NCBI GenBank assembly: GCA_037144045.1
Contig: JBAWXN010000001.1
Location: forward strand, 203,752-267,751
Length of the DNA: 64,000 bases
Direction of reading: 5' to 3'
DNA from: a bacterium
GTDB taxonomy: Bacteria; Patescibacteriota; Minisyncoccia; Phycocordibacterales; UBA1006
The notes beneath the pieces are model-generated. The model was not told the DNA's origin and ran no database searches. It was given only the letters and a program-made list of their open reading frames with translations. Within the stretch, counting starts at the first letter, position 1, and every line of letters begins with the position of its first letter. Below are positions 1,968-50,300 of this stretch, in pieces. The position numbers and the translations under genes were made by a program.

Positions 1968-1970
1968 AAA

Positions 1971-1992: not shown

Positions 1993-1999
1993 TTGAGAA

Positions 2000-3218: not shown

Positions 3219-3248
3219 AAAACCCTGCTTTCGCAAGGTTTTTTATTC
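3219..3248 (-). terminator. Putative terminator downstream of rmuC
   Basis: Imperfect hairpin aaccctgc-tttc-gcaaggtt flanked by T-runs on the minus strand. Confidence 0.4.
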
Positions 3249-4322
3249 TTCGTCTCGTTCCGGTTTTGAAACTTCAATTAGTTCAACATTAATAGCGGTC
3301 TCAGTGATACGCATAATATCTTTATCGATTTTTTTGAATTCTTTTCCTGATGCAGTGTAATGATTTACTACTGTATCAAGTGAAGTACCAAGTTTATTAT
3401 GATAGGTCTGGTACGCACTCAAGTGCTTACCAAGTTCGTCTACACGTTTGATAATGTCTTTCGCAGTTTCTTCGATCTGCATTGCCTTGAGTCCTTGAAG
3501 TACGGTCTGTAAATATGCTAGGAACGAAGTTGGGGAAACGATGATTACTTTATACTTTGAAGCAGCACGTTGAATAAGGTTTTCGGATTCTTCTTGGAGT
3601 GCGCCAACTTTGTTTGTGAGTAGGTCATAGTAGATCGCCTCGTGAGGAATAAACATAAAGGCAAAGTCCATAGTATTTTCCGTTGGGCGAATGTACTTTG
3701 ATGTTTCTGAGATACGGTTCTTTAAATCATTTACAAATGTTGTTTCAAGGCGTTTCTTCTCAATGGGATCTTGCATTTCAACCATCTTGTTATAATTTTC
3801 CAAACTAAATTTTGAGTCTACGGGAATAATCTTGTCTTTAATAAACACTACAGCGTCTACTATTTCGCCGTTACTAAATCCGTACTGCATCTGAAACGAA
3901 TTAGGAGGGAGCACATTCTTCAAAAGAGTTTCCAGATAATATTCACCAAGTACTCCTCGTTGCTTGGGATTTTTTAGAATATCTTGTAATGACTGCAATT
4001 GATCTGCAAACGACATTACTTGTTTTCCGGTTTCTTTTACTTCGGTAAGCTCACGAGTAATTTCTCGGATGAGTTTTTGAGATTCAGAAAATTGAGTCTC
4101 CAAGGATTTTTGCACAACATCAGACGATCGATTCATTTTAATATCAACCGTTTCAGACATCTTATGCATGCGGTCATCTACGGTTCGCGACACCTCGTTG
4201 AGTTGTTGCAAAATAAGCTTAAGTCCGGTATCGTCTTGTTTTACTTCATTTTTTTTAAAGAAGCTTACATACACCAAAAGCATAGCTACTACTATTAAGA
4301 GAAAAATAATTGCGAATTCCAT
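3243..4322 (-). CDS. rmuC: DNA recombination protein RmuC
   Basis: N-terminal transmembrane helix MEFAIIFLLIVVAMLLVYV, then a long coiled-coil, then a conserved RmuC C-terminal region (FAFMFIPHEAIYYDLL...KYKVIIVSPTSFLAYLQTV). Start chosen at the internal ATG (cat at 4320-4322) to avoid overlap with the downstream yqeY-like gene. Confidence 0.8.
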   Translation of the reverse strand: MEFAIIFLLIVVAMLLVYVSFFKKNEVKQDDTGLKLILQQLNEVSRTVDDRMHKMSETVDIKMNRSSDVVQKSLETQFSESQKLIREITRELTEVKETGKQVMSFADQLQSLQDILKNPKQRGVLGEYYLETLLKNVLPPNSFQMQYGFSNGEIVDAVVFIKDKIIPVDSKFSLENYNKMVEMQDPIEKKRLETTFVNDLKNRISETSKYIRPTENTMDFAFMFIPHEAIYYDLLTNKVGALQEESENLIQRAASKYKVIIVSPTSFLAYLQTVLQGLKAMQIEETAKDIIKRVDELGKHLSAYQTYHNKLGTSLDTVVNHYTASGKEFKKIDKDIMRITETAINVELIEVSKPERDEE

Positions 4323-4347
4323 AGGCTTTATGATACCATGACAACAT

Positions 4348-4803
4348 ATGTCACTACAAACAACCATTAAAGACGGCGTGAAAGACGCTATGAAAAATAA
4401 AGACATGGCGCGATTGACGGTTCTACGAGGACTTTCAAGTGCGTTTATGAATGAGGCAGTTAATCTTACTCGAGGACCGCAAGGTGAACTTTCAGACGAA
4501 GAAGTAATTGCGGTTATTACCCGAGAAGCAAAACGACGTAAAGATTCAATTAATCAATACACCGAAGGAGGTCGTGAAGACTTAGCTGCTGACGAAAAAG
4601 CTGAGCTTGCTATCCTTGAAGAATTCTTGCCAACTATGATGTCTATTGATGAAATTCGACCTCTTGCAGAAGCTAAAAAGGCTGAACTGGGCGCTGACGA
4701 CAAAACAAAACTTGGACAATTAGTGGGTGCGCTTATGAAAGATTTGAAAGGGAAGGCAAATGGGGATGATGTAAAAACAGTTGTTGAATCATTATTTAAC
4801 TAA
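4348..4803 (+). CDS. GatB/YqeY domain protein
   Basis: MSLQTTIKDGVKDAMKNKDMARLTVLRGLSSAF... and ...SIDEIRPLAEAKKAELGADDKTKLGQLVGALMKDLKGKANGDDVKTVV match the YqeY family. Confidence 0.8.
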   Translation: MSLQTTIKDGVKDAMKNKDMARLTVLRGLSSAFMNEAVNLTRGPQGELSDEEVIAVITREAKRRKDSINQYTEGGREDLAADEKAELAILEEFLPTMMSIDEIRPLAEAKKAELGADDKTKLGQLVGALMKDLKGKANGDDVKTVVESLFN

Positions 4804-4815
4804 TCTATAAAATTC

Positions 4816-5160
4816 ATGTTTATTATTAAATGGATCATTAAATGGATCATACTATCAGCTGCTGTAGTATTAGCTGCTAATATTATTCCAGGAATTGCGG
4901 TAACCACGTGGACAGTAGCTCTCGTTGTGGGACTTGTACTTGGTTTCATAAACACATTTATAAAACCAATTCTTAGTATTCTCGCTATTCCAATTAATAT
5001 TTTAACACTGGGATTGTTTGGACTCGTACTTAACGCATTATTGTTCTGGGCTGCAGCATACTTCGTAACTGGATTTTCAGTTGCAACATTCGTAGCTGCG
5101 CTACTCGGATCAATTTTGGTTTCAATAGTTATGTGGTTCGCACATTTCTTCATAGACTAA
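4816..5160 (+). CDS. Small 3-4 TM membrane protein (DUF360 / phage-holin-4-like family)
   Basis: Hydrophobic 114-aa protein AANIIPGIAVTTWTVALVVGLVLGFINTFIKPILSILAIPINILTLGLFGLVLNALLFW. Follows the yqeY-like gene on the same strand. The antisense ORF 4800-5153 was rejected. Confidence 0.55.
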   Translation: MFIIKWIIKWIILSAAVVLAANIIPGIAVTTWTVALVVGLVLGFINTFIKPILSILAIPINILTLGLFGLVLNALLFWAAAYFVTGFSVATFVAALLGSILVSIVMWFAHFFID

Positions 5161-5169
5161 TCAATATAA

Positions 5170-5198
5170 AAAATCCCTCACGGGATTTTTTATTTTTT
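5170..5198. terminator. Bidirectional rho-independent terminator
   Basis: aatccc-tcac-gggatt hairpin with A-run upstream and T-run downstream. Sits between convergent genes. Confidence 0.6.
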
Positions 5199-6287
5199 AA
5201 GCAAATTATTTATTACTGATCGAGTTGCAGGACCAACACGACCATCAGAATTTAGCCCATAAGCTTGTTGAAACTCTTTAACCGCTGAATGTGTCATGTT
5301 TCCAAATTTCCCGTCTGCTGTACCACCTAGGAAGCCCATATCAATTAAAAATGATTGTAGGACTTTGACTTGATTCGACTGAACTCCTTTATAAAGTTTT
5401 TGAGTTAACGGCCCAGAGTATGTAGTATCTGCTCCTGGTGTGGTAAACATCCAAGAAGTGTTGCTATACACAGGTTCATAGGGACCTGGTGATAGTGTAC
5501 AGTAACCACTACAAGGTTGTGGTGCTGGCCAGTATCCAATCCATACTCGATATTGTGTATTTGGTTGCAAATTACTTAGATACAAGGGAAGCGGACTGAA
5601 GACATCATCTGAATAAGTAAAGTTTTGTGTCATGTAGTTCGGACTCTGCGCATAAGCATTATAAGAATAATTTACAGAATCTGTTATGTAACGAACGGCG
5701 AGTTTTAATCGTTGTTGTACGTAGTTTTGGTATTCATCGTTTCCAATAGATGCGGTTACAGTCGCATTAGTAGCTCGAATATTTGAAAACTGGAGCTTTG
5801 TTTGATTCAATTGTTGTCCATCACCTTGGGTTGTTACAAGAATTCGATTATTAAATTCGTCAGCGGTTGAAGGACAGGGAGTAGTAATACATACAATTCC
5901 TGTGTCATAAGATAACCAGAGTGTGTATCCTGTATTTGGAGTAAGATTGGTTAAGTAGATAGGAATCAAGGTAGGAGTAGGGCTTGGAGAATAACCAAAT
6001 GTTACAATTGTTGGCATTTGATAGATAGCAGGACAATTAACAATGGCTGCAGTAGATGGATCATCACCACACATAGTTGGTCGATAATTCAAGAAAACTC
6101 GTCGATGATTATTAATGGCTTCTGATAGTCCTTGAGAGAATGGATAGGCATTAACAGTCATACTTGTTTGAGTCATCGACGTGACTGATAAATTATAAGG
6201 CACAGGAGTAAGAGCTTCCGCGCTAGGACTAGAAGCTAGACTACCCACGAGTAAGGCTAAACTAAGTGTCAGGGTTAATTTTTTCAT
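5190..6287 (-). CDS. Secreted protein with fibronectin-III-like repeats and a C-terminal peptidoglycan-binding (PG_binding_1) domain
   Basis: Signal peptide MKKLTLTLSLALLVGSLASSPSAEA. FN3-like motifs YLTNLTPNTGYTLWLSY and YLSNLQPNTQYRVWIGY. C-terminus LYKGVQSNQVKVLQSFLIDMGFLGGTADGKFGNMTHSAVKEFQQAYGLNSDGRVGPATR matches the PG-binding domain 1 consensus. Confidence 0.7.
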   Translation of the reverse strand: MKKLTLTLSLALLVGSLASSPSAEALTPVPYNLSVTSMTQTSMTVNAYPFSQGLSEAINNHRRVFLNYRPTMCGDDPSTAAIVNCPAIYQMPTIVTFGYSPSPTPTLIPIYLTNLTPNTGYTLWLSYDTGIVCITTPCPSTADEFNNRILVTTQGDGQQLNQTKLQFSNIRATNATVTASIGNDEYQNYVQQRLKLAVRYITDSVNYSYNAYAQSPNYMTQNFTYSDDVFSPLPLYLSNLQPNTQYRVWIGYWPAPQPCSGYCTLSPGPYEPVYSNTSWMFTTPGADTTYSGPLTQKLYKGVQSNQVKVLQSFLIDMGFLGGTADGKFGNMTHSAVKEFQQAYGLNSDGRVGPATRSVINNLLKK

Positions 6288-9431: not shown

Positions 9432-10871
9432 ATGATAGGGCACATGATTGAATCTAACGGAAAAAAATATTATCCAACCATTGGTCTTGAAATTCATGCA
9501 GAACTTGCTACAGAAACCAAGATGTTTTGTGCATGTAAAAATAACCCCGACGAAGAACAACCTAATGTAAATACGTGTCCGGTATGCATGGCGCATCCTG
9601 GAACACTTCCCGTACCCAATAAAAAAGCTATCGAAAGTGTTATTAAAGTTGGGCTTGCAATTGGTGCCAACATTGCAAACTTTTCAGAATTTGATCGTAA
9701 AAATTATTTCTACCCCGATATTCCAAAAGGATATCAGATTTCACAGTATAAATATCCTATTGTTTCCAATGGTAACCTTGCTGGTGTAGACATTACTCGC
9801 ATTCACCTCGAAGAAGACACGGCAAACAGTAAACACGACCGAGGAAATTTCTCGCTCGTGGATTTTAATCGTGCTGGAGTACCACTTATGGAATTAGTTA
9901 CCGAACCCATTATTCATGATGCTGACACAGCCATGAAATTCGCTAAGGAATTGCAGTTATTGTTACGCACATTAGGTGTGGCCCATGCGAATATGGAAAA
10001 AGGTGAAATGCGTGTAGAGGCAAACATTTCAGTATCAGATGTTTTCGAAAACTTTGGAACTAAGGTTGAAGTAAAAAACCTCAATAGTTTTTCTGTAGTT
10101 GGTAAGGCAATTGATTATGAAATTAACCGCATGATTGGATTGTATGAAGCAGGACGTAAAGACGAAATTGTCCAGGAAACTCGTGGTTGGGATGAACAAA
10201 AACAAGCAACCTATTCACAACGCCGTAAAGAAAACAGCAATGATTATCGTTATTTCCCCGATCCTGATATTCCTAAGTTTCACCTCCATGAATTGTTTGA
10301 CTTAGAATCCTTGAAAAAAAACCTGCCCGAATTACCAGACCATAAACGAAACCGTTTTGCATCAAAATACGGCATTAAGGCTGAAGACATTGAGGCGTAT
10401 GTTACTGACCCAGATTTAGGAAATTATTTTGAATCAGTTGCAGAAATACTTGGATCAGGTGATGTACTAAAAACAGCTTCTAACTACATTACCTCAGACT
10501 TACTCGGACTCCTTGCTAAAAATACAGAAGCTAAGCGGCCAAGTATTACTCATTTTGCAAAACTCATCGAGATGAATGCTGATAGTAAGCTTAACTCTCG
10601 AGGAGTAAAAGACATTCTTGCAATGATTGTTATTGCTGACAAAGACCCAGAAGCTATTGCTCAAGAAAAAGGATTGATTCAGCAAAATGATGAAGGCGCG
10701 CTTAAGGCTCTTGCTCAGAAATACGTCGATGCACATCCAAACGTTGTTGCAGAGTACAAAGCTGGTAAAGAAGCGTCACTTATGTTTTTTGTTGGACAGA
10801 TCATGAAAGAAACAAAAGGTTCAGCTAATCCTGCCATGGTTCAGAAAATACTCAAAGACATATTGTTGTAA
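9432..10871 (+). CDS. gatB: Asp/Glu-tRNA amidotransferase subunit B
   Basis: YYPTIGLEIHAELATETKMFCAC, NTCPVCMAHPGTLP and RIHLEEDTANS, with a C-terminal YqeY-like tail. 479 aa. Confidence 0.9.
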   Translation: MIGHMIESNGKKYYPTIGLEIHAELATETKMFCACKNNPDEEQPNVNTCPVCMAHPGTLPVPNKKAIESVIKVGLAIGANIANFSEFDRKNYFYPDIPKGYQISQYKYPIVSNGNLAGVDITRIHLEEDTANSKHDRGNFSLVDFNRAGVPLMELVTEPIIHDADTAMKFAKELQLLLRTLGVAHANMEKGEMRVEANISVSDVFENFGTKVEVKNLNSFSVVGKAIDYEINRMIGLYEAGRKDEIVQETRGWDEQKQATYSQRRKENSNDYRYFPDPDIPKFHLHELFDLESLKKNLPELPDHKRNRFASKYGIKAEDIEAYVTDPDLGNYFESVAEILGSGDVLKTASNYITSDLLGLLAKNTEAKRPSITHFAKLIEMNADSKLNSRGVKDILAMIVIADKDPEAIAQEKGLIQQNDEGALKALAQKYVDAHPNVVAEYKAGKEASLMFFVGQIMKETKGSANPAMVQKILKDILL

Positions 10872-24128: not shown

Positions 24129-24458
24129 ATGAAAGAAGTTACTTTTAAAATAGACATGACCGAATTTGCAACCAAGAAAGACCTTGAACAATTCGCTACT
24201 AAAAAAGATCTTGAATCATTTGCAACTAAGAAAGACCTTGAGCGTTTTGCAACAAAAGAAGATCTTGCAAAACTTGATGATACGCTCCATTATTTCATGG
24301 ACAAAGTAATGACTACACTGGATAGGATTGAATCAACCATGGCCACCAAAGAAGACCTTAACAAACTACGCCACGATCATGGTACCCGCATAGAACTTCT
24401 TGAGGATGAAGTAAGGAATATTAATAAGAAACTCGAGCACGTACATCTAGGAGTGTAA
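24129..24458 (+). CDS. Small coiled-coil protein with four tandem 9-aa FATKKDLEx repeats (DUF1640-like?)
   Basis: MTEFATKKDLEQFATKKDLESFATKKDLERFATKEDLAKLDD..., then a C-terminal coiled-coil. The family assignment is tentative. Confidence 0.5.
   Translation: MKEVTFKIDMTEFATKKDLEQFATKKDLESFATKKDLERFATKEDLAKLDDTLHYFMDKVMTTLDRIESTMATKEDLNKLRHDHGTRIELLEDEVRNINKKLEHVHLGV
24165..24272 (+). repeat. Intragenic 27-bp tandem repeat, 4 copies
   Basis: Units tttgcaaccaagaaagaccttgaacaa / ttcgctactaaaaaagatcttgaatca / tttgcaactaagaaagaccttgagcgt / tttgcaacaaaagaagatcttgcaaaa. Confidence 0.7.
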
Positions 24459-24476
24459 TATGCTAGAATACTCGAT

Positions 24477-26162
24477 ATGACACAGCGAGACGCGCTCACA
24501 ATCATGAAAATGGGGAATAATGTCTTCCTTACTGGAGGTGCAGGATCTGGAAAAACCTACGTACTTAATGCATACATTAAGTACCTTAAAGAACATGATG
24601 TTGAAGTAGCTATTACTGCATCAACAGGAATCGCGGCGACTCACATGGGAGGAATGACAATTCATGCATGGTCAGGAATGGGAATTCGTGATTTTATTTC
24701 TGATTACGATATTGATCAAATGGAAGAAAAAAAGTACCTCTGGGATCGCTACGACAAAGTGAAAGTACTTATCATTGATGAAATTTCAATGCTTTCAGGA
24801 GGATTCCTTGATAACCTCGATAGAATATGTAGGTCGTTTAAAAGAAATCCTGAAGTAGCTTTTGGCGGTATTCAGGTTATTTTGTGTGGAGACTTATTTC
24901 AGCTACCACCTATTTCAAGAAATGAAGCATCATCGGGACTTGTCATTGATTCATTGGCTTGGAAGAATTCAAACTTTGTAGTGTGTTACATTACTGAACA
25001 ACACCGTCAAGACGATTCTCGATTCACAGAAATACTCAACGCGGTGCGTACTAACAGTCTCTCTAATGATCACTTCGAAATACTTGAATCACGCATGCGT
25101 GAATTTGACGACGATTTTTTTGCCTCCATGACAAAGCTGTTTACTCATAATTCAGACGTCGATGTAATTAATAATCGTGCACTCATTCAAATTGACGAAG
25201 AAGAACATGAATACCTCATGACTGCAAAAGGTAAATCAAACCTCATTGAAACCCTAAAGAAAAGTTGTTTAGCACCCGAGAAACTTATTTTGAAAATTGG
25301 AACAGAGGTAATGTTTGTTAAAAATAACTACGATAAGGGATACGTAAACGGAACGCGAGGTATCGTTATTGATTTTGATGAACTCGATCAGCCTATTATT
25401 GAACTACGCAATGGTGATAAGGTAACCGTTGGCACAGAAACATGGGGAATTGATGATGAAGGCAAAGTACTTGCATCGATTACTCAGATGCCTTTGCGTC
25501 ATGCGTGGGCTATTACGGTGCACAAAAGCCAGGGAATGAGTCTTGATGAGGCAGTTATTGATCTGTCACGTTCGTTCACGTATGGAATGGGCTACGTTGC
25601 GCTATCGCGAGTACGGAGGCTCGAGGGGTTGCATCTTATTGGTTTTTCGCGAGAATCATTAGACCTTGATCCGCGCATGTATATAGTTGACCAAGACCTT
25701 CAAAAAAGGTCAGAGCGTGCTGCGGAACGACTCAAGGAAATTGATCTCGACACGCTTGAAAAGCGACACGCTGACTTTATAACAAAATCAGGAGGTTCTC
25801 TTGAGATTAAAGTTCAGTCAGTAAAAAACAAACTTTCAACCCAAAAAACACACGAACAAACCTATGACCTTATTAAATCAGGAAAAACTATCGATAGTGT
25901 AGCAAAAGAACGCGATCTGGTAGTAGGTACCGTCATTGATCACCTCGACAAAGCACGACAACTCGGTTGGGATATTTCATTCAAGCATATCAAACCAAGT
26001 AAAACAGAAATGTCTGCAATCAAGGCAGCATTTCAAGAAACAAAGGAGCGGGGTACCGACATTCACGAGGCAAAGCTTACTCCTGTAAAACGATACCTTG
26101 ATAAAGCCGGTGCAGACTATAGTTTTGACACTATTAAATTAGTAAGGTTGTTTTTGAAATAA
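24477..26162 (+). CDS. Pif1-family SF1B DNA helicase with a C-terminal HTH domain
   Basis: Walker A GGAGSGKTY. Motif II LIIDEISML. Pif1 signature motif LDRICRSFKRNPEVAFGGIQVILCGDLFQLPPIS. Motif VI VHKSQGMSLD. C-terminal HTH segment TYDLIKSGKTIDSVAKERDLVVGTVIDHL. Confidence 0.85.
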   Translation: MTQRDALTIMKMGNNVFLTGGAGSGKTYVLNAYIKYLKEHDVEVAITASTGIAATHMGGMTIHAWSGMGIRDFISDYDIDQMEEKKYLWDRYDKVKVLIIDEISMLSGGFLDNLDRICRSFKRNPEVAFGGIQVILCGDLFQLPPISRNEASSGLVIDSLAWKNSNFVVCYITEQHRQDDSRFTEILNAVRTNSLSNDHFEILESRMREFDDDFFASMTKLFTHNSDVDVINNRALIQIDEEEHEYLMTAKGKSNLIETLKKSCLAPEKLILKIGTEVMFVKNNYDKGYVNGTRGIVIDFDELDQPIIELRNGDKVTVGTETWGIDDEGKVLASITQMPLRHAWAITVHKSQGMSLDEAVIDLSRSFTYGMGYVALSRVRRLEGLHLIGFSRESLDLDPRMYIVDQDLQKRSERAAERLKEIDLDTLEKRHADFITKSGGSLEIKVQSVKNKLSTQKTHEQTYDLIKSGKTIDSVAKERDLVVGTVIDHLDKARQLGWDISFKHIKPSKTEMSAIKAAFQETKERGTDIHEAKLTPVKRYLDKAGADYSFDTIKLVRLFLK

Positions 26163-26190
26163 CTTATTAAAATGTGTATACTTAACTCAT

Positions 26191-26880
26191 ATGAAAAAAC
26201 TCTATTTTGATATTGAAACCATTCCTGCTGATGAATCATCCCACGAAGCATTACGGTATTTATATAATCGTAAGATCGAGAAAAAGATGAAAGAAAAGGG
26301 AATTGATCACACTGAGGCCGTTGCAGAATTTGGAACGTTTGAAAAATTTGTTGATGGAACCGGTTTTGATGGATCATTCGGACGAGTACTATGTATTGCA
26401 TATGCCGTAAATAATGAAGAAACGCGCGTTATTTGTAACGATGGTAACGAAAAAAAGACCCTCGAGGATTTCTGGTTTGTTGCAAAACAAATTGATCTGT
26501 TTGTCGGGCATAACATTATGGAATTTGATCTTAAATTCCTCCTGCAGCGATCAATCATGCTTGGAGTAAAACCAACTTGGACACGATTCATGGAACCCGG
26601 TAAAAAACCATGGGACATGATTAAACATCTCGATTTTGCTCGGTATAAGAGTCTTCCTATATTCGATACGATGCATGAATGGTCAAACTGGGGGAATCCC
26701 AAGGTTGGGCTTGAACATCTCGCACTTGCTATGGGTATTCCAACACCTAAAGAAGGCATTGATGGATCTGAAGTTTGGAATTTCTACAAAGCTGGAAAAG
26801 TGAAAGAAATTTGTGAGTATTGTATGCGCGACGTAGAAACTACTCGAGCAGTATATAAACGCATTGCATTTGAAGACTAG
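26191..26880 (+). CDS. RNase H-fold 3'-5' exonuclease (YprB/MrfB-like, PolB-exonuclease-related)
   Basis: Exo I-like motif LYFDIETIP. Later acidic motifs (FVGHNIMEFDLKFL, YCMRDVETT) are consistent with a DEDD-type fold. Starts 29 nt after the helicase. Confidence 0.6.
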   Translation: MKKLYFDIETIPADESSHEALRYLYNRKIEKKMKEKGIDHTEAVAEFGTFEKFVDGTGFDGSFGRVLCIAYAVNNEETRVICNDGNEKKTLEDFWFVAKQIDLFVGHNIMEFDLKFLLQRSIMLGVKPTWTRFMEPGKKPWDMIKHLDFARYKSLPIFDTMHEWSNWGNPKVGLEHLALAMGIPTPKEGIDGSEVWNFYKAGKVKEICEYCMRDVETTRAVYKRIAFED

Positions 26881-26897
26881 TAAGTAGTCTTTTTTTG
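26873..26897 (+). terminator. Rho-independent terminator after the exonuclease gene
   Basis: aagact-agtaagt-agtctt followed by a T7 run. Confidence 0.5.
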
Positions 26898-26918
26898 TAT
26901 CCGTGATATTATTACGCT

Positions 26919-29198: not shown

Positions 29199-30431
29199 AT
29201 GAAACGCTTTTTTATTTTTATCGCAATTTTATTAGTAGTTATCATTGGTGGCACCGTTGTGTATGCTGCACTTAAACCTACTACCAGCAAACCCTTATCT
29301 ACACAACCCACTCCTCCTGCATCAAGTACTTCCGAAGTAGTTGTACCAGAAAAACCGCTCGTAACTCATATCGAGACCCCGAAACCCCTCAAGGCTCTTT
29401 ACATCTCGAGCTGGGTTGCTGCAAGTCCGAAACCGCTTGCGCACGTAATGGACATTATTGAATCTACAGAAATTAATGCTGTAGTAATTGATATTAAAGA
29501 CTCAACAGGAAAAATCTCGTTCCTTGTAGATGATCCAATTATTACTGCAACTAAATCTCCTGAGAACCGCATCAAAAATATTCGAGAATTCATTAATACA
29601 CTTCATGAAAAAAATATTTACGTAATTGGACGTGTTTCAACGTTTCAAGACGACTTTGTTGCAAAGTCAAAACCCGAATGGGCCCTTAAGAAAAAAAGTG
29701 ACGGATCAGTATGGAAAGATCGAAAAGGACTCCCGTTCCTCGATCCAGCAAACCCTGATGTTGTTAACTACCTTATCGCTATTGGACGTGCCTCGTACAA
29801 CGTAGGTTTCGATGAAATTAACTACGACTATATTCGGTACCCATCTGACGGAAATATTAAGGATATCGACTACAAATTAGCGCCAGGTAAAACTCGCGCT
29901 GATAATATCACAGCATTTGCAGAAAAATTGCATGATGAACTAAAAAAAGAAGCTGGAATTAAAATTTCAGCAGATGTATTCGGTCTCACAACAACAGAAA
30001 CTACTGACATGGGTATCGGGCAGGTATTCGAACGAATGCTTCCATACTTTGACTATATAGCACCTATGATCTACCCGTCACACTATGCAAATGGCGAATA
30101 CGGTATCAAAATACCTGCAGAAAAACCTTACGAAACGATCATGAAGGCGCTTGCTGGTGCTAAAAAGAAAACTCGCGAACTTGCTACAACTCGTAATTCT
30201 GAAGTTTCGGGAACGAGTACAGTTCAAACCAATGTGGTAGACGAAGCGAAAGCTGATGAACTATACGCAAAAGTACGTCCTTGGCTTCAAGATTTCTCAA
30301 TTGGTAAAACAAAGTATGATGTTACTAAAGTAGTAGCACAGATTAAGGCTACTAACGACTCGGGACTTGATTCATGGATGATGTGGGATCCAAGTAATCG
30401 TTATACAACAGGTGCTTATCAAAAGAACTAA
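29199..30431 (+). CDS. Secreted or membrane-anchored putative glycoside hydrolase (DUF4015-like TIM barrel)
   Basis: N-terminal TM/signal segment. KALYISSWVAASPKPLAHVMDIIESTEINAVVIDIK...LDPANPDVVNYLIAIGRASYNVGFDEINYDYIRYP. Confidence 0.55.
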   Translation: MKRFFIFIAILLVVIIGGTVVYAALKPTTSKPLSTQPTPPASSTSEVVVPEKPLVTHIETPKPLKALYISSWVAASPKPLAHVMDIIESTEINAVVIDIKDSTGKISFLVDDPIITATKSPENRIKNIREFINTLHEKNIYVIGRVSTFQDDFVAKSKPEWALKKKSDGSVWKDRKGLPFLDPANPDVVNYLIAIGRASYNVGFDEINYDYIRYPSDGNIKDIDYKLAPGKTRADNITAFAEKLHDELKKEAGIKISADVFGLTTTETTDMGIGQVFERMLPYFDYIAPMIYPSHYANGEYGIKIPAEKPYETIMKALAGAKKKTRELATTRNSEVSGTSTVQTNVVDEAKADELYAKVRPWLQDFSIGKTKYDVTKVVAQIKATNDSGLDSWMMWDPSNRYTTGAYQKN

Positions 30432-37339: not shown

Positions 37340-40300
37340 TTACTTACTGATAAGCGCCCACGTTTTAGGACCTACTACCCCATCAGTTTTCAATTTATTT
37401 TGTTTTTGGAATCGTACTACAGCAAGTTTGGTTTTTACCCCAAACAGAGTTGATTCTTTTCCTGGCGAACCAGCACCTGTTTTAGCAATAATAAACCCTT
37501 TCTTGTTTAATGCCTGTTGTAATAATTTTACATCAGCACCCTTCAAACCTTGCTTAAGGGTTCGTTGTACTGTTGTAGTTGGTTGAGTATTTTTTACAGG
37601 GTCATTCACGGGTTGTGAAGACCATGCTTGCCCAACACCTCGATACGAACCTGATGATGAGCCACCGCCTGTAGATGTATCAATCACAGTAAACGGCCCA
37701 ACCATTACTGTATTTGAATCATTATTATTTGCGTCACGACATCCGAAACTAAATGAATACGTACCACCAACCTTGAGCCCTGATACATATGCCGTCTGTT
37801 CAGTATTACTATCAGTTATATCGCTAATATGTAGTTCTGCACTATCACTTACCGACGACTGAATTGGATATGCAAATGGTGTACACACTTCTGAAACAGT
37901 GAACTTGTATGTCGCATTAGCAATCGTTGTCTGCGCTGCAATTGATTTTACCTCGGTAATAATAGGAGCCGTCACGTCAGTTATTTCAAATGTTGTACGC
38001 AAGACAGGATAACTATCTGTCACCGTGCTCCAAATATCTGTGAAATTCCAACTACCTTCACCAGAAGCAAATACTGGCTTCGTTGCGTTGTTGAAGAAAT
38101 AAGCCGTGTCTGGATCTGCGATCGTATTTACCGCAGTACAATCTGAAGCACTTTGATCGTCAACACATCCAAGCGAATTCTTTTCTTCGTCATAATATAC
38201 CTCTCCAAAAACGAGTGTTGCACCCATGTTATTACTTCCCACAACTGAACCCTTGGCATGATCTGCAACCATGGTATTAGCTACAAAAGAATTGTAGATG
38301 TACAGCGACCCTTCATCATTGCGACCAACAAGTCCTCCTGCGTCTCCACCATTTGCGTATGCCGCAACACTTCCTGCTGCATATACCTCAGCGATAAACA
38401 CCGTACCACTGTTACCAGCACCTGACACACCAATGATTCCTCCGACACCACCAGTTGAACCAAGGGTTCCGTTAAAATATGAGTTAGTGATATTCAACGT
38501 ATGATTTCCAATATACGTTGATCCAATTAAACCTCCAACATATCCACCGTTTGCGCCAACGCTTCCTGTCGCATAGTTTTCTGACATTGTATTAATAAAC
38601 TCACCGCTACCATCGCGATAGTTACCAATATACCCGACGAGGCCTCCTGAATAACTTCCTGAACCTACTGATGCAAGTGACCGGTTTGCGGTAATGGTAA
38701 TATATGCGGTTGAATCGTCCCCATAAGTACTGATGTTCTGATACCCAATAAGCCCACCTGCATAGTAACCCCCTGAAGCAATTACACCCTCAACACTATT
38801 GCCATTGACTGTAAAATGGAAACTCTCATCATCATCGTCCATACTATGATACATATAACCAATAAGTCCTCCAGCTGCTGAATCTGTTGCTTCAACTTCA
38901 GCACTTACCCTATTGTTTGCAATAGTAATATTGTTTACATCGTTATTGTAGTAGGTGTATGAATCAATATACCCAATAAGTCCTCCAACATTTTCTGTTC
39001 CGTAAATATTACCACTAGTAACAGTATTACCTGAAACAGTTAAGTTTATAGTTGTGTCATCATCCTGGTCTCCGTCTAACTCAACCTCGCCAATAATTCC
39101 TCCAACATCAGAACCGCCATGAGCGCTGTCACCAGCGACTGTTCCTGTAAATGAGTTATTGGTTAATGAAGTTAAAACACTATATCCTTCCTCGTCTGGG
39201 TATGAATAGAGGTAGCCGACAATACCTCCAACCTTGCTATTTCCAGAAACAACACCACTTGACGAACTATTTGAAATACTTGAACTATGAATCGTTGCAC
39301 CATCAGAGTCCATATAACCAACCAATCCTCCAACATCATTACCTCCCCATCCATAGTTAGGATTGTATAGCCCGTTTACCGCAAGATCACTACGTACATT
39401 TGAAATTGTTGTGTGATATGCATATCCAACAAGTGCCCCTACTTCATAGAATCCTGTAACAGAACCGGTATGCAATGTAACGTTTTTAATAGTGGCTCGA
39501 TCGGTCATCTTGAAAAGACCAACATCACCTTCTTCTGGCAGGTTAATAGTTAAATTACTAATAGTATATCCACGTCCATCAAACACTCCTCGGAAAGTAT
39601 TGTTCCATCCTCCGTTTCCAAGCGCTCGGAAGTTTGGAATTCCCGAACAGTCAATATTTTGAGTTAAATTAAATGTATGTGTATAGGTGTCTGCTTCGGT
39701 ATCCATTGCTTGTAGTTGTGCACAACTACTGATCTCATGTACGGTAGAATTACCAACTGTAAATTGAACTGGGTTAGAGTACTCTCCGTAACCAAGCCAA
39801 TTTTCTGCAGAGATTCTGACATCGTATGTCTGGTCATAATCAAGCTTATTATCGTTATCATCGTATGACAAACTTGTCGTTGTAGCCTCAAGAGCCAGAG
39901 GATTATCCCAATTTGCTGTTGAAAGTTTTACTTGAATGCGATAGCTACTAATTGGAAGTCCGCCATCTGAGAGTGGCACTTCCCACGTAAAGTCAGGATT
40001 TAGGCCATTTACTTGTGCAGTAACATTTTGAGGTTCTGCTGGAGTTGAGATTGCATCTATTGGAATCAGTGTTGGATAATCACCGTCTTCCTGATGCCAA
40101 ACATTTGTAAAATTCCACTGCGTCATCGGAGCTGAAGTTGGTAACAGGAAATAGAATCCTGCGCTCGATGCTCCAGTACATCCATCACCCACTTCGGCAC
40201 CCGAAGCAATACATGAATCGCTTCCATTCGCGGTTGAATCGTAATAATTATTAGTAATCGTTACAGTACTTTGCCTTCGCCCCATAAATGCTCCGTGATT

Positions 40301-42424
40301 ACTTCCACCTGAAACAGTAGTTGCAGCAAAATTGTTGGCAAAAACTACATCGGATCCTCCTTCAGCATATCCTACAAATCCACCAACATCGCCACCCTGG
40401 CCCGTGACATCACCCACTGCATAGTTACGAAGTAAATAAGTACAACAATTTCCTGTTTCTCCAACAAAACCACCGACAGCATAGCTACCCCCATTTACCG
40501 TAGCTCGCGCATAACTATCAGAAATAGTTGTATTTACTGCGTACCCAGTGAATCCTCCAGAAGAAGAAACTCCTCCTGTTACTGTTCCTACGAAACTACT
40601 TTTTGAAACTCCATTCGACGATTGGATAAGTCCAGCAAATCCTCCGACTCGTCCAGCACTTGCGTTTATTGTTCCTGATACGTGAACACCAACAACCGTT
40701 CCATAGATAGTTCCGGCAAGTCCTCCAACATGATCATCACCGCCGGTGACCGTCATATTAGTAAGATTAAAACCATACACAAGAGCACTACCATCAATCT
40801 GAGTAAAAAGTCCTCCCTTACCTGTTGGACCAAGATTGATAGTAATCCCTGAGATAGTATGCCCTCCTCCAACAAATATTCCATCAATACCTTCAATCGG
40901 TATAAATCCAAAATACTGTCCTGGATTTTGAGGATCTTCGTTCCATGTTGCAGTTGCCGAACAATCAATATCATTCCCAAGCGTTACATGTACCCCTTGC
41001 CCAACATTTCCTTGAAGCGACTGAAGCTCTTCACAGGTAGTAACCAAGTAAGGAGTGTTCTCTGACCCATCACCTGCACCCAAGAAACTGTGATCTACAG
41101 TAAATGACGGAATGTTAATTGTATTTGAAAGATTTCCTCCGGCATCACGAACACGAACGGTACAATCTGAATAGGTACCAGTATCGAATCCAAAACTAAT
41201 AGTATTTGAACCAACCGTTGCTGGTACTTCTTCACCACTACATGCACCACCAGTGACGATAGTTCCCGCCTCATCTGTGGTAAATATATAATTTTGAGTA
41301 TATGCACGGGTTGGTGTTGTGATTGCCGTTATTTCTGAAATAACAGGAGCCGTAACATCTGGATCATCATTTACCACACCACCATCAGCGGTGATTGCGC
41401 GCAACGACGGATACTCATCAGTATTTGTTTCCCAGATTGTAGTAAAATCCCATGACGTAAGTGGTGCATTTGCTGCATCGTCTTTAAAATAGTGGATATT
41501 TGTGTTTCCGGCATTTACCCCTTCACACTGACCTATAACAGGTATAATCACCGCTCCATTGTTGTTGTATCCACACATAGTTCGTGTCGATCGGGAAATA
41601 TCAAAAAAGTTATTAGTAAGTCCTGCCGATGGTGTACTTGTTCCGTCTTGGTCATTTCCCCACAGACCTCCAAAGAAGAACGTATTTTGACCAGACAAAA
41701 CTGCTCCCGCATTAAAACTATTAGTGATAATACTTCCTGTTAAGCGCCAACCTGTCAGACCTCCCAGGTGATAAATAGCATCCGTATTTCTTCCGACCTG
41801 CCCGCGATTATATGAATTTATAATACTTGCATAACTCGTCATAAAGCCGGTAATACCTCCAATTTGAGATCCACTAGCAGAGGAAACCTCTCCTGTGTTG
41901 TATGAATTCGTAATAGTAGCATCAGCAAGAAATCCTACAAGACCACCAACATACGAACGCCCCCGAACACTTGCCTCGTTTACGACACGCTCAATTACAG
42001 TAGCTCCGTCAGCAGAAGCCACAACACCTGCAACATAATCACCGGTTGCAGAAACAGATCCAGTAACTCGTACGTCATGAATATGTGCACCGGTAACCTT
42101 ACCAAAAACTCCAACATACTGTGCACCAACATTGGAAATATTTACATCAATCGTATACCCTTGACCATCAAAATCACCTGTGAACGGATCGTTTACAGCG
42201 CCCATAGATAGGAAACTTGTTCCTGAACAATCAATATTATTTGCCAGTTTATATGAAGCCCCTGTATTGAAAGAAATTTCAGTAAGCTGAACACAGTCAG
42301 TAATCATATAAGGATCCCCAATAGTTCCGGCACCTGAACCAGTAAACGCGAACGCATGGCTTGCAGTAACCAAGCTCATTATGAGCAGTGCAATAATTGA
42401 TGCAGTTTTTTTAAAGTAATTCAT
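37340..42424 (-). CDS. Giant (1694 aa) secreted surface protein with many GLUG-motif Gly-rich repeats, an FN3 domain and a C-terminal peptidoglycan-binding domain
   Basis: Signal peptide MNYFKKTASIIALLIMSLVTASHAFA. Tens of GLUG-like repeats (VGGLVGY..., GGLIGY..., VGGFVGY...NSYA.G.V). FN3-like PQNVTAQVNGLNPDFTWEVPLSDGGLPISSYRIQV...YDVRISAENWLGYGEYS. C-terminal LKQGLKGADVKLLQQALNKKGFIIAKTGAGSPGKESTLFGVKTKLAVVRFQKQNKLKTDGVVGPKTWALI (PG_binding_1). Confidence 0.75.
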   Translation of the reverse strand: MNYFKKTASIIALLIMSLVTASHAFAFTGSGAGTIGDPYMITDCVQLTEISFNTGASYKLANNIDCSGTSFLSMGAVNDPFTGDFDGQGYTIDVNISNVGAQYVGVFGKVTGAHIHDVRVTGSVSATGDYVAGVVASADGATVIERVVNEASVRGRSYVGGLVGFLADATITNSYNTGEVSSASGSQIGGITGFMTSYASIINSYNRGQVGRNTDAIYHLGGLTGWRLTGSIITNSFNAGAVLSGQNTFFFGGLWGNDQDGTSTPSAGLTNNFFDISRSTRTMCGYNNNGAVIIPVIGQCEGVNAGNTNIHYFKDDAANAPLTSWDFTTIWETNTDEYPSLRAITADGGVVNDDPDVTAPVISEITAITTPTRAYTQNYIFTTDEAGTIVTGGACSGEEVPATVGSNTISFGFDTGTYSDCTVRVRDAGGNLSNTINIPSFTVDHSFLGAGDGSENTPYLVTTCEELQSLQGNVGQGVHVTLGNDIDCSATATWNEDPQNPGQYFGFIPIEGIDGIFVGGGHTISGITINLGPTGKGGLFTQIDGSALVYGFNLTNMTVTGGDDHVGGLAGTIYGTVVGVHVSGTINASAGRVGGFAGLIQSSNGVSKSSFVGTVTGGVSSSGGFTGYAVNTTISDSYARATVNGGSYAVGGFVGETGNCCTYLLRNYAVGDVTGQGGDVGGFVGYAEGGSDVVFANNFAATTVSGGSNHGAFMGRRQSTVTITNNYYDSTANGSDSCIASGAEVGDGCTGASSAGFYFLLPTSAPMTQWNFTNVWHQEDGDYPTLIPIDAISTPAEPQNVTAQVNGLNPDFTWEVPLSDGGLPISSYRIQVKLSTANWDNPLALEATTTSLSYDDNDNKLDYDQTYDVRISAENWLGYGEYSNPVQFTVGNSTVHEISSCAQLQAMDTEADTYTHTFNLTQNIDCSGIPNFRALGNGGWNNTFRGVFDGRGYTISNLTINLPEEGDVGLFKMTDRATIKNVTLHTGSVTGFYEVGALVGYAYHTTISNVRSDLAVNGLYNPNYGWGGNDVGGLVGYMDSDGATIHSSSISNSSSSGVVSGNSKVGGIVGYLYSYPDEEGYSVLTSLTNNSFTGTVAGDSAHGGSDVGGIIGEVELDGDQDDDTTINLTVSGNTVTSGNIYGTENVGGLIGYIDSYTYYNNDVNNITIANNRVSAEVEATDSAAGGLIGYMYHSMDDDDESFHFTVNGNSVEGVIASGGYYAGGLIGYQNISTYGDDSTAYITITANRSLASVGSGSYSGGLVGYIGNYRDGSGEFINTMSENYATGSVGANGGYVGGLIGSTYIGNHTLNITNSYFNGTLGSTGGVGGIIGVSGAGNSGTVFIAEVYAAGSVAAYANGGDAGGLVGRNDEGSLYIYNSFVANTMVADHAKGSVVGSNNMGATLVFGEVYYDEEKNSLGCVDDQSASDCTAVNTIADPDTAYFFNNATKPVFASGEGSWNFTDIWSTVTDSYPVLRTTFEITDVTAPIITEVKSIAAQTTIANATYKFTVSEVCTPFAYPIQSSVSDSAELHISDITDSNTEQTAYVSGLKVGGTYSFSFGCRDANNNDSNTVMVGPFTVIDTSTGGGSSSGSYRGVGQAWSSQPVNDPVKNTQPTTTVQRTLKQGLKGADVKLLQQALNKKGFIIAKTGAGSPGKESTLFGVKTKLAVVRFQKQNKLKTDGVVGPKTWALISK

Positions 42425-46398: not shown

Positions 46399-47316
46399 CT
46401 ACTTAATTTCTGCGCAGTCTTTTTGATTCATTTGAAATCCTGGAGTCAATTTTTCAGGATGCGCATAGACATAGCTCCCGTCTTCACTATCCTTCATTTC
46501 ACCAAAAAATGCGACTGCAGATCCTTCTCCAAACTGAATTTTCAATTGTTCTGTTGCCTGCATTCCTTCTGCCATTACATTCCACCATACATCAGCGGTA
46601 CGTGAAGAAATCTTTGGATTCATAGGTCCCACCACTCCTTCAAAAGTTCCTGTTTTAGAATCCTTTTCTGCGGGTAAATTTTTATACTCACCAGAAATTG
46701 TATTACCTAAGATAGTCATGTTCAATATGGCTCGATCAAAAAATCCAGCAGGCGTTTTCTTTTCATACGAATAACACATGGCAATAGGTTTTACACACTC
46801 TGTAGCAACATATGAACGTACCTTGTATTCTTTGGTAGTATCTGGAACGAGTCCGTCTTTGTAGTTATCAATTAATGAATACTGTAGTTTATCAATTCCT
46901 GTTTTTGTAAATTTGTAAATTTCTTGTTCGATGTTTTTTGAACCCTCAACAGTATAGGCGTAGTCTGCCGTAATCGTATCACCTGCAATGGTACCCGTGA
47001 GATTTCCAGAGTATCCATTCGTCATATCAGGACCTGACTGACTCCCTTTTTTATTACCCGTTACTTGGGTTCCGTTTATGGTAAAGGTAAGATATTCGTC
47101 GACGGCATACGGCGCATCTTGAGTAGCTACCTGATGATACGCATAGCAACGGGTTCCTGTGGTTTGATCAAGTATCGTCTCAACCGGTGATACGGTGAGT
47201 GCCTGTGGCTGTGTTACTACTAATATCGCAACAACCCCTCCAACTAACACGATTAATGTTCCGATAATGATAATTATTTTTTTCATGAACTCATTATACC
47301 ACAATAAAAGACCCAC
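46399..47316 (-). CDS. Hypothetical secreted or membrane-anchored protein
   Basis: N-terminal TM helix KKIIIIIGTLIVLVGGVVAILVV. No recognised domain. Confidence 0.45.
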   Translation of the reverse strand: MGLLLWYNEFMKKIIIIIGTLIVLVGGVVAILVVTQPQALTVSPVETILDQTTGTRCYAYHQVATQDAPYAVDEYLTFTINGTQVTGNKKGSQSGPDMTNGYSGNLTGTIAGDTITADYAYTVEGSKNIEQEIYKFTKTGIDKLQYSLIDNYKDGLVPDTTKEYKVRSYVATECVKPIAMCYSYEKKTPAGFFDRAILNMTILGNTISGEYKNLPAEKDSKTGTFEGVVGPMNPKISSRTADVWWNVMAEGMQATEQLKIQFGEGSAVAFFGEMKDSEDGSYVYAHPEKLTPGFQMNQKDCAEIK

Positions 47317-47339: not shown

Positions 47340-50300
47340 TTACTGAGCTAAACCATTAGCTCCGCATGACTTATTAATGAGTCCTCTCGTTACAGGTCCT
47401 ACCATTCCGTCTTGGTCAGTTCCTAAATACTTCTGCATGCGCTTGATCGCACCATCAGTGATTTTTCCAAGGATTCCATCAACAGGTCCAGAATTAAATC
47501 CAAGTCGGTTCATATGTCCTTGAAGTATTTTTACTTCTTTAACCATCGCTTTGGTGTACGGATGATACTTACCATTGCGTGCACCTGCTTTTAGATTTTG
47601 AGTAAGGATTTGATCGGCAGGACAGGTATCTAGGGAAGGCGTATTTGGTATTGCCGTTGCAGATGCTGTGTTTTGTGCAACCGGTGTCCAAGGTCTTCCT
47701 TGACCCGACGAAATTGTTGGTTGAGTAGTAGCTACCCCTGGCACATATTCAGGTTCGGTTGGCGCAAATCTAAATACTGGATAATTTGCGGTTGCCTGCC
47801 AAATCGTATCAAAATCCCAATCAGTCATCGGGGCACTAGTATTATTTGCCTTGAAATAATTAACACCTGATACCTTGGTTGGTTGAGGATTTGCATAGCT
47901 ACCATCTACCCCAATACTTGCAGCACTATACCAATAGTTACCCGTTGCGGCATAATCTAACATATTACTTGAGCCGGCATATCCACCAATAACAGCACCG
48001 CCAGTTGTCGGTTCACTTACCGTAAACGAATCATAAGTTCCTTTAGGATCAGAACCCCAATCGGCACCCGTTATTCCTCCAGTATAGTTTCCTGTACTGT
48101 GAACAGTACCTGATGAATATACCCGTTCAATGGTTCCATAGTTAATCCCCGTAATACCACCCACATAACTATCTCCCTCGATGGTTGTTGCCGCGTAACT
48201 ATCGTGAATCCAACCATTGCCCTGGTTTGCACCAGCAATTCCACCAGCAATTCCACCACCCGCTATGGTACCTGTAAAATACGACCGTCTTATTTCTTTA
48301 TTATTGTTACCAACCAATCCTCCCACATGACTATTTCCTGTCACGTCTGCGGTTGAATAGGATTCAATGATCGTACTTCCTCCACTGCGAAGCGCATCAG
48401 GAAATGGTCCTGGTACTACTCGAGTATTCCAAGTGTTGATGTAAGAAGTATTTTCTGGAGTCATTGGATACGGTGCCATACCTGGACCATATTTAGTCAT
48501 GCCACGATACGGTAAATAATCTGCTGACTGACTATATTCGCCCATACCTTGATAGGTTGCGTGTTTATAGAGCGCATCGTTGTACAGTACAAAACTTCGT
48601 TCCATACCCTCTACAGGTGCAATGTATGGGAATTCAACAGACAACTGGTCTCCATAACGCATTACCACAAATTGATCATCCGAATCATTTAGGAGCGGCG
48701 TCACGTCACCATATTTGGTAAATTTTCCGTATTGGTTTTTAAATATTCCTCTTGGTAGCGGACTTGCTTTTGAATAATCGTGATCATAGAAATGACTGCG
48801 ATCAATCTCGCTGAATCCATAGTATCCCAAGTCAACCGATTCTGGTTGGTAGGTATTCGCCGTGAAAGGAACTTGGGCTGAAGTATCTACGGCAAAATAG
48901 TTTGCATTGAATGTATCAAAGGCAACTTTTACACGATAATCATTCGTCAAGAATTTCCCCGTCAAATCAACGGTTCGCAATCGCGCTGTTCCATCTGAAC
49001 CTAATTGATTTTTGTTATAAATTTCAACCCAGTTTCCGTTTGCATCTTTTACTTGGATTGATCGCGCTGAGTTTCCTGGATATTGTGCACTGGCTGCGTA
49101 ATCACGCGCACCACGGATCACTAATTGAATTGAATTAGCTTCTGACAAATCACCAAAATCTAGCACGAAACTTTTCTTGAGATTTGCCGGGTTATAATTA
49201 CCGCCTTGATTTGTAAAGCTCCACTGATCGTCATATGCCTTGAGTGCATCGGTACAATTGGTACCCTTTTCGTCAACACATGATACCAATTGATGGGTAG
49301 GTGTGTCACTTACCGTACGCAATCCATCAACACCCGCAGTACTTGTAAGCGGTTCTACTACTGAATATCCTGGTGCATGATCAAATGTCATCAATGCTAA
49401 TTTATCATAATACACGGTTTCGTTATATTCCTCGGTAATCTTCATGGAATATTTACCGTCTTTCGGTGCAAGATTATTCGCATCAATTGTCGCCAAGTCT
49501 ATTCCACTTAAGTCCTTAGGGAGTAATCCTCCTACGTCATTCGTATACACATATTTTGATCCGTTCCAGGTATAGACCAATGGACTTGAATTGGGAAAAT
49601 TATTTGCATCTACATGGGATCCAACCAATCCTCCAACATTTTCTTGTCCCTGTACGGTACCACTACTGCTTACATTAGTGAGTGTACCTGAAAGCCCTCC
49701 AGCGAATGCACCTATATTTTTTCCGGCAGCAGTTATATTCACATTTTCAAGCTCGAGGTTCTTTACCTCAGCACCTGCGGCAATCGTTCTGAAAAGCCCG
49801 ACATAGTATCCGTCCAACTCACTGTTATTTACTCCACGATTAATATACAGACCGCTGATTTTATGATTTTGCCCATCGAAAACACCCGTAAAACTCTGAT
49901 GATTAAATCCTGAACTAATATTATTCCCATTAACAGCAATTTCACCAAGTGGCCTGAACCCCTTGCCACTGTTCCAATTAATAGTATCCGAACAATCAAT
50001 ATCACTTGCTAATGCATAATACTTATCAAGGGTTGAAACATCATTTCCAACTGCCTGAAGTGCCACACAACTTGAAATCATATACGGATCAAGTTCTGTT
50101 CCTGTTCCAGTAAGAGTGATTTCGTTTGAAGCAGGTCCGTATTTCATAACCTTAGCCTTGTTTTGTAACCCTGTGAATCCAACATAGAGGGTGTCGTTCG
50201 GTGCAACAACAAGTGAGACAAAAGCGCCGGAACGCTCTGAAAAATCTGCGGCGCCTACAGAAATCCATCCATCACCGTTATAAGTCACGACATTTACCTT

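Follow-up and report, generated by a model that had tools for sequence, protein, structure and literature searches.

Does a helicase gene lying directly ahead of an exonuclease gene mark a dedicated two-protein machine, or two genome-maintenance genes that are neighbours in some genomes and not in others? We examined this question at a locus within a 64,000-nt stretch of a Patescibacteria chromosome (assembly GCA_037144045.1, contig JBAWXN010000001.1, positions 203,752 to 267,751; hereafter the window, with coordinates counted from its first letter). Here, the gene for a 561-amino-acid (aa) Pif1-family DNA helicase is followed by the gene for a 229-aa exonuclease related to the proofreading domain of family-B DNA polymerases (PolB) (Table 1). 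A previous sequence-only reading had presented the two as a helicase-exonuclease cassette analogous to MrfAB of Bacillus subtilis. We arrive at a different interpretation: the two are probably independent core genome-maintenance genes with a facultative linkage, rather than a fixed repair or defence cassette. We favour this interpretation because most genomes separate the two genes and because the exonuclease also neighbours several other genes of replication and repair. Where the linkage does occur, it is possibly functional.

Adjacency among relatives of the exonuclease

The helicase and the exonuclease both belong to large families that are widespread in Patescibacteria. A scan of one genome per GTDB species returned exonuclease relatives in 287 species-level genomes, the homologues carrying names such as Parcubacteria, Minisyncoccota, Nomurabacteria and Paceibacterota. 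From the 287 relatives we took the best 80 (45-80% identical, all from Patescibacteria), 75 of which gave informative loci, and located Pif1 around each exonuclease by tblastn and with a hidden Markov model of the helicase. Pif1 was directly upstream of the exonuclease in six of the 75 loci (L001, L003, L005, L008, L012 and L015), and in two further loci it lay 4.1 and 7.8 kb away. All six adjacent exonucleases are at least 69% identical to that of the window; expressed by identity, adjacency was seen in 6 of the 12 informative loci at 65% or above and in none of the 63 below. The spacing of the six pairs varies from 19 to 608 nt. An open reading frame (ORF) for a 144-aa hydrophobic protein (2293-2727) is inserted between the two genes in L001, and a 115-aa ORF (9523-9870), DUF559-type endonuclease-like by eye only, in L015. 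In a neighbour-joining tree of the exonucleases, the Pif1-adjacent loci are scattered among close relatives with glutamyl-tRNA synthetase (GltX) and an M23 peptidase upstream. The exonuclease-Pif1 adjacency is restricted to some lineages, and the term cassette is hard to maintain for an arrangement that is limited to a shallow clade, is absent from more than 90% of related loci, and leaves the two genes largely without co-occurrence as neighbours in related genomes.

Other clades surround the exonuclease with blocks of their own. One block consists of MgtC, the exonuclease, a family-4 uracil-DNA glycosylase and AlaS, and the glycosylase directly follows the exonuclease in six loci (L014, L016, L017, L025, L029 and L031). 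In another, HU comes before the exonuclease, and both DnaE and RNase HII are nearby; in one Parcubacteria clade DnaE is two genes away on the opposite strand (L034, L037, L041, L050 and L053, with the exonuclease at about 10001-10600 in most). A third block reads YgjP-like peptidase, exonuclease, DUF5654 and M50 protease, and LexA-like genes are also among the exonuclease neighbours in other lineages. As an observation apart, L057 holds two genes of the exonuclease cluster in tandem (10001-10660 and the next gene), apparently a local duplication.

Adjacency around Pif1 and in a second exonuclease subfamily

A second set of loci was anchored on the helicase and comprised 80 metagenome loci with Pif1 proteins 37-52% identical to that of the window, 69 of them with a called downstream gene. 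An exonuclease was next to Pif1 in one of these 69, L129. Clustering of the neighbours in the 80 loci yielded no conserved Pif1 neighbour; the commonest cluster, LexA-like, appeared three times.

The exonuclease of L129 is about 29% identical to that of the window and represents a second large Patescibacteria subfamily of the Pfam family PF10108 (3708 matches), 27-30% identical to the window exonuclease. The neighbourhoods of thirteen members were looked up, and several of the observations that weigh against independence of the two genes come from them. Pif1 is directly upstream of the exonuclease in 4 of the 13 and one gene away in a fifth, in two contexts. The first (L129, L163 and L165) runs Pif1, exonuclease, NrdR and NrdD, where Pif1 (408-415 aa) lacks the HTH_40 domain and gaps measure 5-120 nt; L163, with a Pif1 of 408 aa and an exonuclease of 235 aa, and L165 carry different genes upstream of the pair but keep NrdR-NrdD downstream. 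The second runs ArgS, in part YgjP, then Pif1 (542-554 aa), exonuclease, IleS and RecO, with a 12-nt gap in L167; in the P0402 contig, a DUF3750 gene separates the exonuclease from Pif1. Counting the arrangement of the window, Pif1 followed by the exonuclease on one strand is found in three flanking contexts of about 50 sampled and with two exonuclease subfamilies, where a rough estimate, not a computed statistic, puts the chance expectation for two arbitrary genes in a genome of about 800 genes at about 0.1-0.3% per independent context. This recurrence above chance could reflect selection for linkage, and with it a real functional partnership; as the arrangement is seen again around another exonuclease subfamily in two further settings, some functional link stays plausible. 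Within the window itself, the 28-nt gap, the lack of a terminator between the genes and the terminator after the pair are all compatible with co-transcription. Alternatively, the genes could have become adjacent very early, with the arrangement persisting in a few lineages, and a YgjP-like gene upstream in both exonuclease subfamilies is a hint of old shared synteny.

The remaining 8 of the 13 second-subfamily loci are without Pif1, several of them with other DNA-transaction genes nearby. An AddA-like helicase-nuclease of about 1000 aa (UvrD with PD-(D/E)XK) comes after the exonuclease in L169 (4713-7700) and L170 (5203-8331), directly or one gene downstream, and in L169 the two genes abut (4711/4713); it adds another type of helicase to the neighbours of this exonuclease family. 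Single loci have RarA/MgsA with a DHH phosphoesterase, a PD-(D/E)XK protein, LigA two genes upstream, an RNase_T-type exonuclease, SIR2 with ArgS, or an HsdM_N fragment. We also noted that the pair in L129 (metagenome Ga0172379_10010610) is preceded by an island-like run of ORFs (1-5905) whose translations read as an N6-adenine methylase-like protein, a LexA/S24-like repressor, a PemK/MazF-like toxin, a 373-aa protein and a radical-SAM-like protein.

These data bear directly on the alternative of a dedicated partnership, in which Pif1 and the exonuclease would be co-transcribed, bind to each other and function as a single machine, comparable to a split version of the Gram-positive DinG exonuclease-helicase fusion or of WRN; as Pif1 unwinds 5'-3', the exonuclease would degrade the displaced strand starting at its 3' end. 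The order does recur in three contexts and two subfamilies, always on the same strand and mostly with gaps of 5-28 nt; the window shows no hairpin between the genes and a terminator after them; other lineages place the exonuclease beside the AddA-like helicase-nuclease or RarA; and the inferred polarities of the two enzymes are complementary. However, the adjacency is missing in 69 of 75 exonuclease-anchored and 68 of 69 Pif1-anchored loci, half of the genomes within the window's own clade have other genes upstream, and unrelated ORFs split the pair in L001, L015 and the P0402 contig. No helicase fusion was detected among the 150 best exonuclease representatives, all of them stand-alone proteins of 77-290 aa, or among the 120 best matches of either subfamily. 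Each gene has its own -10-like box (see below), and an ancestral adjacency kept in a few lineages could be neutral. We therefore treat a dedicated partnership as a tentative possibility, and independent genes with facultative linkage as the preferred interpretation.

Table 1. Features of the helicase-exonuclease locus in window coordinates
Feature	Coordinates	Strand	Basis or remark
109-aa repeat/coiled-coil protein ORF	24129..24458	+	ORF list
Tandem repeat, 27-nt unit, 3.9 copies, encodes FATK(K/E)DLEx	24163..24267	+	Tandem Repeats Finder, score 112-152
-10-like hexamer TAGAAT, preceded by TGc, ends 7 nt before helicase ATG; candidate leaderless promoter	24464..24469	+	
Pif1-family SF1B DNA helicase, 561 aa; core with 2B/SH3 domain and C-terminal HTH_40	24477..26162	+	Pfam, PDB, PHROG
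Walker A motif GGAGSGKT, aa 20-27	24534..24557	+	Read from translation
Pif1 signature motif AFGGIQVILCGDLFQLPPIS, aa 128-147	24858..24917	+	Residue-for-residue alignment with human PIF1
Pif1 2B (SH3-like) domain, aa 256-300	25242..25376	+	PF21530, 3.7e-10
C-terminal HTH_40 domain, aa 458-557	25848..26147	+	PF14493, 1.8e-14
Promoter-like TTGAAA-17-TATACT, 10/12 consensus positions, ends 8 nt before exonuclease ATG; candidate leaderless promoter	26154..26182	+	
Stand-alone PolB-exonuclease-like DEDDy 3'-5' exonuclease, 229 aa, PF10108/COG3298	26191..26880	+	Pfam
Exo I motif FDIET (D7, E9)	26206..26220	+	Invariant in 71 homologues
Exo II motif HNIMEFD (N108, D113)	26509..26529	+	Invariant; aligns with Pfu PolB YNGDSFD
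Exo III motif YCMRD (Y210, D214), DEDDy type	26818..26832	+	Invariant; aligns with Pfu PolB YSMED
Intrinsic-terminator-like hairpin, 8-bp stem, 5-nt loop, then U-run; overlaps exonuclease stop codon	26872..26896	+	Folding

The helicase is a Pif1-family member

The 561-aa protein is a genuine Pif1-family helicase of superfamily 1B (SF1B) with intact ATPase motifs, for which 5'-3' unwinding is predicted. It matches PIF1 (PF05970) at 3.5e-35 (122 bits against a cut-off of 25.9), AAA_30 as well, and, for the 2B domain, Pif1_2B_dom (PF21530) with 39.8 bits against a cut-off of 23.9. Among solved Pif1 structures, which include yeast and Bacteroides proteins, E-values range from 1e-55 to 1e-67, with human PIF1 (6HPT) at 7.6e-67; the PHROG match is a Dda-like helicase (4.3e-70). 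In an alignment of 16 helicase sequences, the Walker A residues G20, A22, G23, G25, K26 and T27 are invariant, as are D101 and E102 of the DExx motif LIIDEISM (aa 98-105). The family assignment of the sequence-only reading, made from the signature AFGGIQVILCGDLFQLPPIS between helicase motifs II and III and a C-terminal helix-turn-helix, is borne out: the Pfam PIF1 and HTH_40 matches and the 6HPT alignment all agree.

The helicase shares its Walker A motif, signature, 2B/SH3 domain and full-length core with human PIF1, yeast Pif1 and Rrm3, Bacteroides BaPif1 and Thermus ToPif1. Unlike the crystallised Pif1 cores, it adds a C-terminal HTH_40 domain of about 100 aa, which is also missing from some Patescibacteria Pif1 orthologues of 408-443 aa. 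The physiological role of bacterial Pif1 is still open (PMC3113762).

The exonuclease is of the PolB-like DEDDy type

The best Pfam match of the 229-aa protein is PF10108 (DNA_pol_B_exo2; 1e-20, 74.8 bits against a cut-off of 24), with PF13482 (RNase_H_2; 4.2e-9) and PF03104 (1.6e-5) as secondary matches. An assignment to RNase_H_2 is thus correct in that this profile does match, and not correct in that PF10108 matches best. The motif LYFDIETIP, on which the exonuclease had first been recognised, is found at aa 4-12. Exo II and Exo III were aligned to PolB of Pyrococcus (Pfu), while the FDIET of Exo I lies outside the aligned stretch and was matched by motif only. The six residues D7, E9, N108, D113, Y210 and D214 are invariant in alignments with 17 and with 71 homologues, so that a loss of the catalytic site, which would have undone the prediction, is not what the alignments show: all DEDD residues are present. 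The fifth catalytic residue is a tyrosine, which places the enzyme in the DEDDy type. The catalytic motifs are intact and 3'-5' activity is predicted.

The PF10108 match and the Exo motifs agree on an RNase H-fold, PolB-exonuclease-like 3'-5' exonuclease, and a fold check found agreement with the family-B proofreading domain. Between the first two strands sits a helical insertion (aa 15-59). Unlike PolB, the protein stands alone, without a polymerase domain. No biochemically characterised member of the PF10108/COG3298 family was apparent in the searchable literature.

It has been noted above that DnaE and uracil-DNA glycosylase are among the neighbours of this exonuclease in other clades; these neighbourhoods hint at a role in proofreading or base-excision repair. 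One may ask whether the exonuclease serves mainly to proofread or edit 3' ends in trans for the replicative polymerase DnaE or for base-excision repair, its proximity to Pif1 being incidental. The fold and motifs of a proofreading domain would suit such a role, as would DnaE two genes away with HU and RNase HII nearby (five loci), the family-4 glycosylase that follows (six loci), and the wide spread of the family over 287 species-level genomes of Patescibacteria. Yet the DnaE and glycosylase neighbourhoods are themselves each confined to a single clade and carry no more weight than the Pif1 neighbourhood, and one locus of the second subfamily has an RNase_T/DnaQ-like gene two genes away. We consider this explanation unlikely, and return to facultatively linked, independent genes as our preferred interpretation.

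Comparison with MrfAB and with helicase-nuclease fusions

The locus does resemble MrfA-MrfB (YprA-YprB) of Bacillus subtilis in that a helicase gene adjoins a gene for a DEDD-superfamily exonuclease, and both exonucleases belong to the PolB-like branch of the RNase H fold. Could it be a mitomycin or crosslink repair module of the MrfAB type, with Pif1 in place of the DEXH helicase MrfA? Besides the similarity of the gene pairs, each a helicase with a DEDD 3'-5' exonuclease, the secondary match to PF13482, the family that holds YprB, points in this direction, and MrfB itself structurally resembles PolB-type exonucleases (PMC11194089). The details of the two exonucleases differ, however. MrfB is of the DEDDh type (His258), with a long N-terminal insertion and a C-terminal tetratricopeptide repeat (TPR) domain (PMC11194089); the window exonuclease has the invariant Tyr210 where MrfB has His258, its FDIET begins at residue 6, leaving no room for a long N-terminal insertion, and it ends 15 residues past Exo III, with no TPR match in Pfam. 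In the classification of the RNase H-like superfamily, PF10108/COG3298 forms its own cluster beside PolB and apart from COG3359 (YprB), whose proteins frequently have TPR repeats after the nuclease domain (PMC3985635). A PDB profile search with the exonuclease recovered family-B polymerases only and did not recover MrfB (8UN9) even at E-values up to 10, and by sequence and structure comparison the exonuclease is not closer to MrfB than to other DEDD nucleases.

The label YprB/MrfB-like is therefore wrong, since the protein is of the DEDDy type, lacks the TPR domain and the N-terminal insertion, falls in a separate cluster and does not retrieve MrfB from the PDB; family, catalytic type and architecture all differ. 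The helicase does not fit either: it is an SF1B Pif1 and not a DEXH/DUF1998 protein such as MrfA (YprA), to which it is unrelated, and it belongs to the opposite polarity class. With the adjacency of helicase and exonuclease also not conserved, we judge a crosslink repair module of this type to be very improbable.

The combination of a helicase with a DEDD exonuclease is an already known design, seen in WRN, DinG and MrfAB. In DinG of the Staphylococcus aureus type, a DEDD 3'-5' exonuclease forms the N-terminal part and is joined to a 5'-3' SF2 helicase. Both DinG and WRN unite their activities obligatorily in one polypeptide, whereas here two genes of different families are linked in a minority of genomes. 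No description of a pair made up of Pif1 and a PolB-type exonuclease was found in the searchable literature.

Transcription signals

Shine-Dalgarno sequences precede almost no start codon across the window. Hexamers resembling the -10 box (at least 5/6 match to TATAAT; boxes TATAAT, TATACT and TATAGT) start 12-16 nt before the ATG in 21 of the 63 window ORFs of at least 90 aa, against about 2.2 expected; examples are the ORFs at 52265-52681, 46399-47286 and 29199-30431. The near-absence of Shine-Dalgarno sequences, together with the enrichment of -10-like boxes just before the ATG, suggests that leaderless mRNAs are widespread and the norm in this Patescibacteria genome.

The helicase, the exonuclease and the downstream DUF1003 gene each have a -10-like box of their own. 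As these boxes stand at the position typical of this genome's apparently leaderless genes, the exonuclease may be transcribed from a promoter of its own; with no terminator in between, transcription could equally continue into it from the helicase gene. Folding revealed no comparable hairpin between the two genes. The terminator proposed after the pair was confirmed as a terminator-like structure, in that folding of 26866-26900 gave a hairpin with a U-run and a dG of -10.3 kcal/mol (z -3.84; none of 200 shuffles as stable). A scan for consensus terminators missed it, the stem having fewer than three G-C pairs, and direct folding recovered it. The proposal that the two genes look like one operon is supported as far as their common direction, the missing hairpin between them and the terminator behind them go; with a -10-like box for each gene, a single operon is not required.

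Chromosomal setting, defence and phage relatives

Chance is excluded as the source of the ORFs at this locus, which are long and have strong profile matches. The three lie in the same direction on the + strand, as had been described, with gaps that measure 18 nt (109-aa ORF to helicase) and 28 nt (helicase to exonuclease) rather than the 19 and 29 nt first given. Housekeeping genes flank the locus (an RluB-type pseudouridine synthase, an HI0933-like flavoprotein, DUF1003, QueA and an RsmI-like gene), and the GC content is flat at 0.39-0.40 over 20-32 kb of the window. The locus is ordinary core chromosome.

The tandem-repeat coiled-coil gene reported just upstream of the helicase is indeed present. 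Its 109-aa product consists of the 9-aa repeat and then a predicted coiled coil; it has no Pfam match above threshold (DUF2730, 16.6 bits against a cut-off of 24.9), and its matches in PHROG are weak and unassigned in function there. Among syntenic relatives, a homologue (52% identity) is upstream of Pif1 in L001 only, and the gene is probably not part of any conserved unit with the helicase.

Might the pair instead be an anti-phage defence module, or the remnant of a mobile or phage replication-recombination module? PADLOC 2.0 matched neither protein to a specific defence model. Its generic matches (RecD-like and the candidates PDC-S68 and PDC-M16A for the helicase; Cas-associated DEDDh for the exonuclease) could be read in favour, as could the methylase, MazF-like toxin and LexA-like gene adjoining the pair in L129. 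A defence module was nonetheless rejected, the matches being generic only and the flanks and GC content showing no island. In L163 and L165, the retention of NrdR-NrdD beside variable upstream genes puts the pair on the core side and not in an island, and in its distribution the exonuclease resembles a core gene, found clade-wide in single copy.

Phage homologues of the exonuclease do exist and adjoin SSB and Erf or Sak4. In INPHARED, relatives 33-37% identical occur in such modules of SSB with Erf or Sak4 annealing proteins; the stand-alone PolB-associated exonucleases of phages (Brucella phage Pr gp51; PHROG 403 and 25228) share family, size and this range of identity with the window protein. 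Unlike these phage copies, the window exonuclease sits among housekeeping genes. Relatives in IMG/VR are at most 29% identical, with no Pif1 within 5 kb of any, and none of the 46 viral loci has Pif1 near the exonuclease relative. A phage origin was likewise rejected, the relatives being distant and without a nearby Pif1. Both the defence and the mobile origin appear to us extremely improbable, and the preferred interpretation, independent core genes with optional linkage, is in keeping with the setting of the locus.

Other features of the window

Elsewhere in the window, on the - strand, a gene at 54760-56610 encodes a 616-aa ATPase (AAA_15/AAA_21) with PADLOC matches to Old (1.1e-31), AriA (9.5e-28) and GajA. 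It lies in a low-GC stretch (54000-58000, GC down to 0.36), is likely a single-gene defence candidate of the OLD family as judged from its profile matches, and is the only defence-like element seen in the window. Two large proteins, likewise encoded on the - strand (37340-42424, 1694 aa; 47340-51251, 1303 aa), both end in a PG_binding_1 peptidoglycan-binding domain, the former also with GLUG and fn3 motifs; from this domain content, they are probably surface or cell-wall-associated.

Implications

We envision each enzyme acting in replication or repair in its own right, with Pif1 clearing structured or protein-bound DNA and the exonuclease trimming 3' ends or mismatched primer termini. In genomes that have the genes side by side, the two proteins might be co-expressed and cooperate: a 5'-3' helicase would peel off the opposite strand from its 3' end, which would be a substrate for a 3'-5' exonuclease. 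Under this model the pairing would be optional, and the pair would be neither an obligate two-component system, nor an MrfAB homologue, nor a defence module.

A more far-reaching model would make the exonuclease a general 3'-end editor that lacks a motor or polymerase of its own and is recruited, lineage by lineage, by Pif1, the AddA-like helicase-nuclease, RarA or DnaE, the pair in the window, like those in two other clades with the second exonuclease subfamily, then being a real two-protein machine. We find this doubtful; if true, it would amount to a split analogue of the DinG-exonuclease fusion or WRN built on an SF1B Pif1, and to the first defined partner for a bacterial Pif1.

For annotation, the exonuclease should be corrected to a PolB-type DEDDy exonuclease that is not YprB-like, and the locus represents neither an MrfAB-like cassette nor one for defence. 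The helicase is a new Pif1-family member with an HTH_40 tail, and the exonuclease a new member of PF10108/COG3298. The evidence shows an optional pairing, and the locus is a lead for a systematic neighbourhood study, not a discovery by itself. PF10108/COG3298 exonucleases are nearly ubiquitous among Patescibacteria, a group that retains few repair genes in its reduced genomes, and a demonstrated partnership of Pif1 with such an exonuclease would assign a function to both families and add a helicase-nuclease design.

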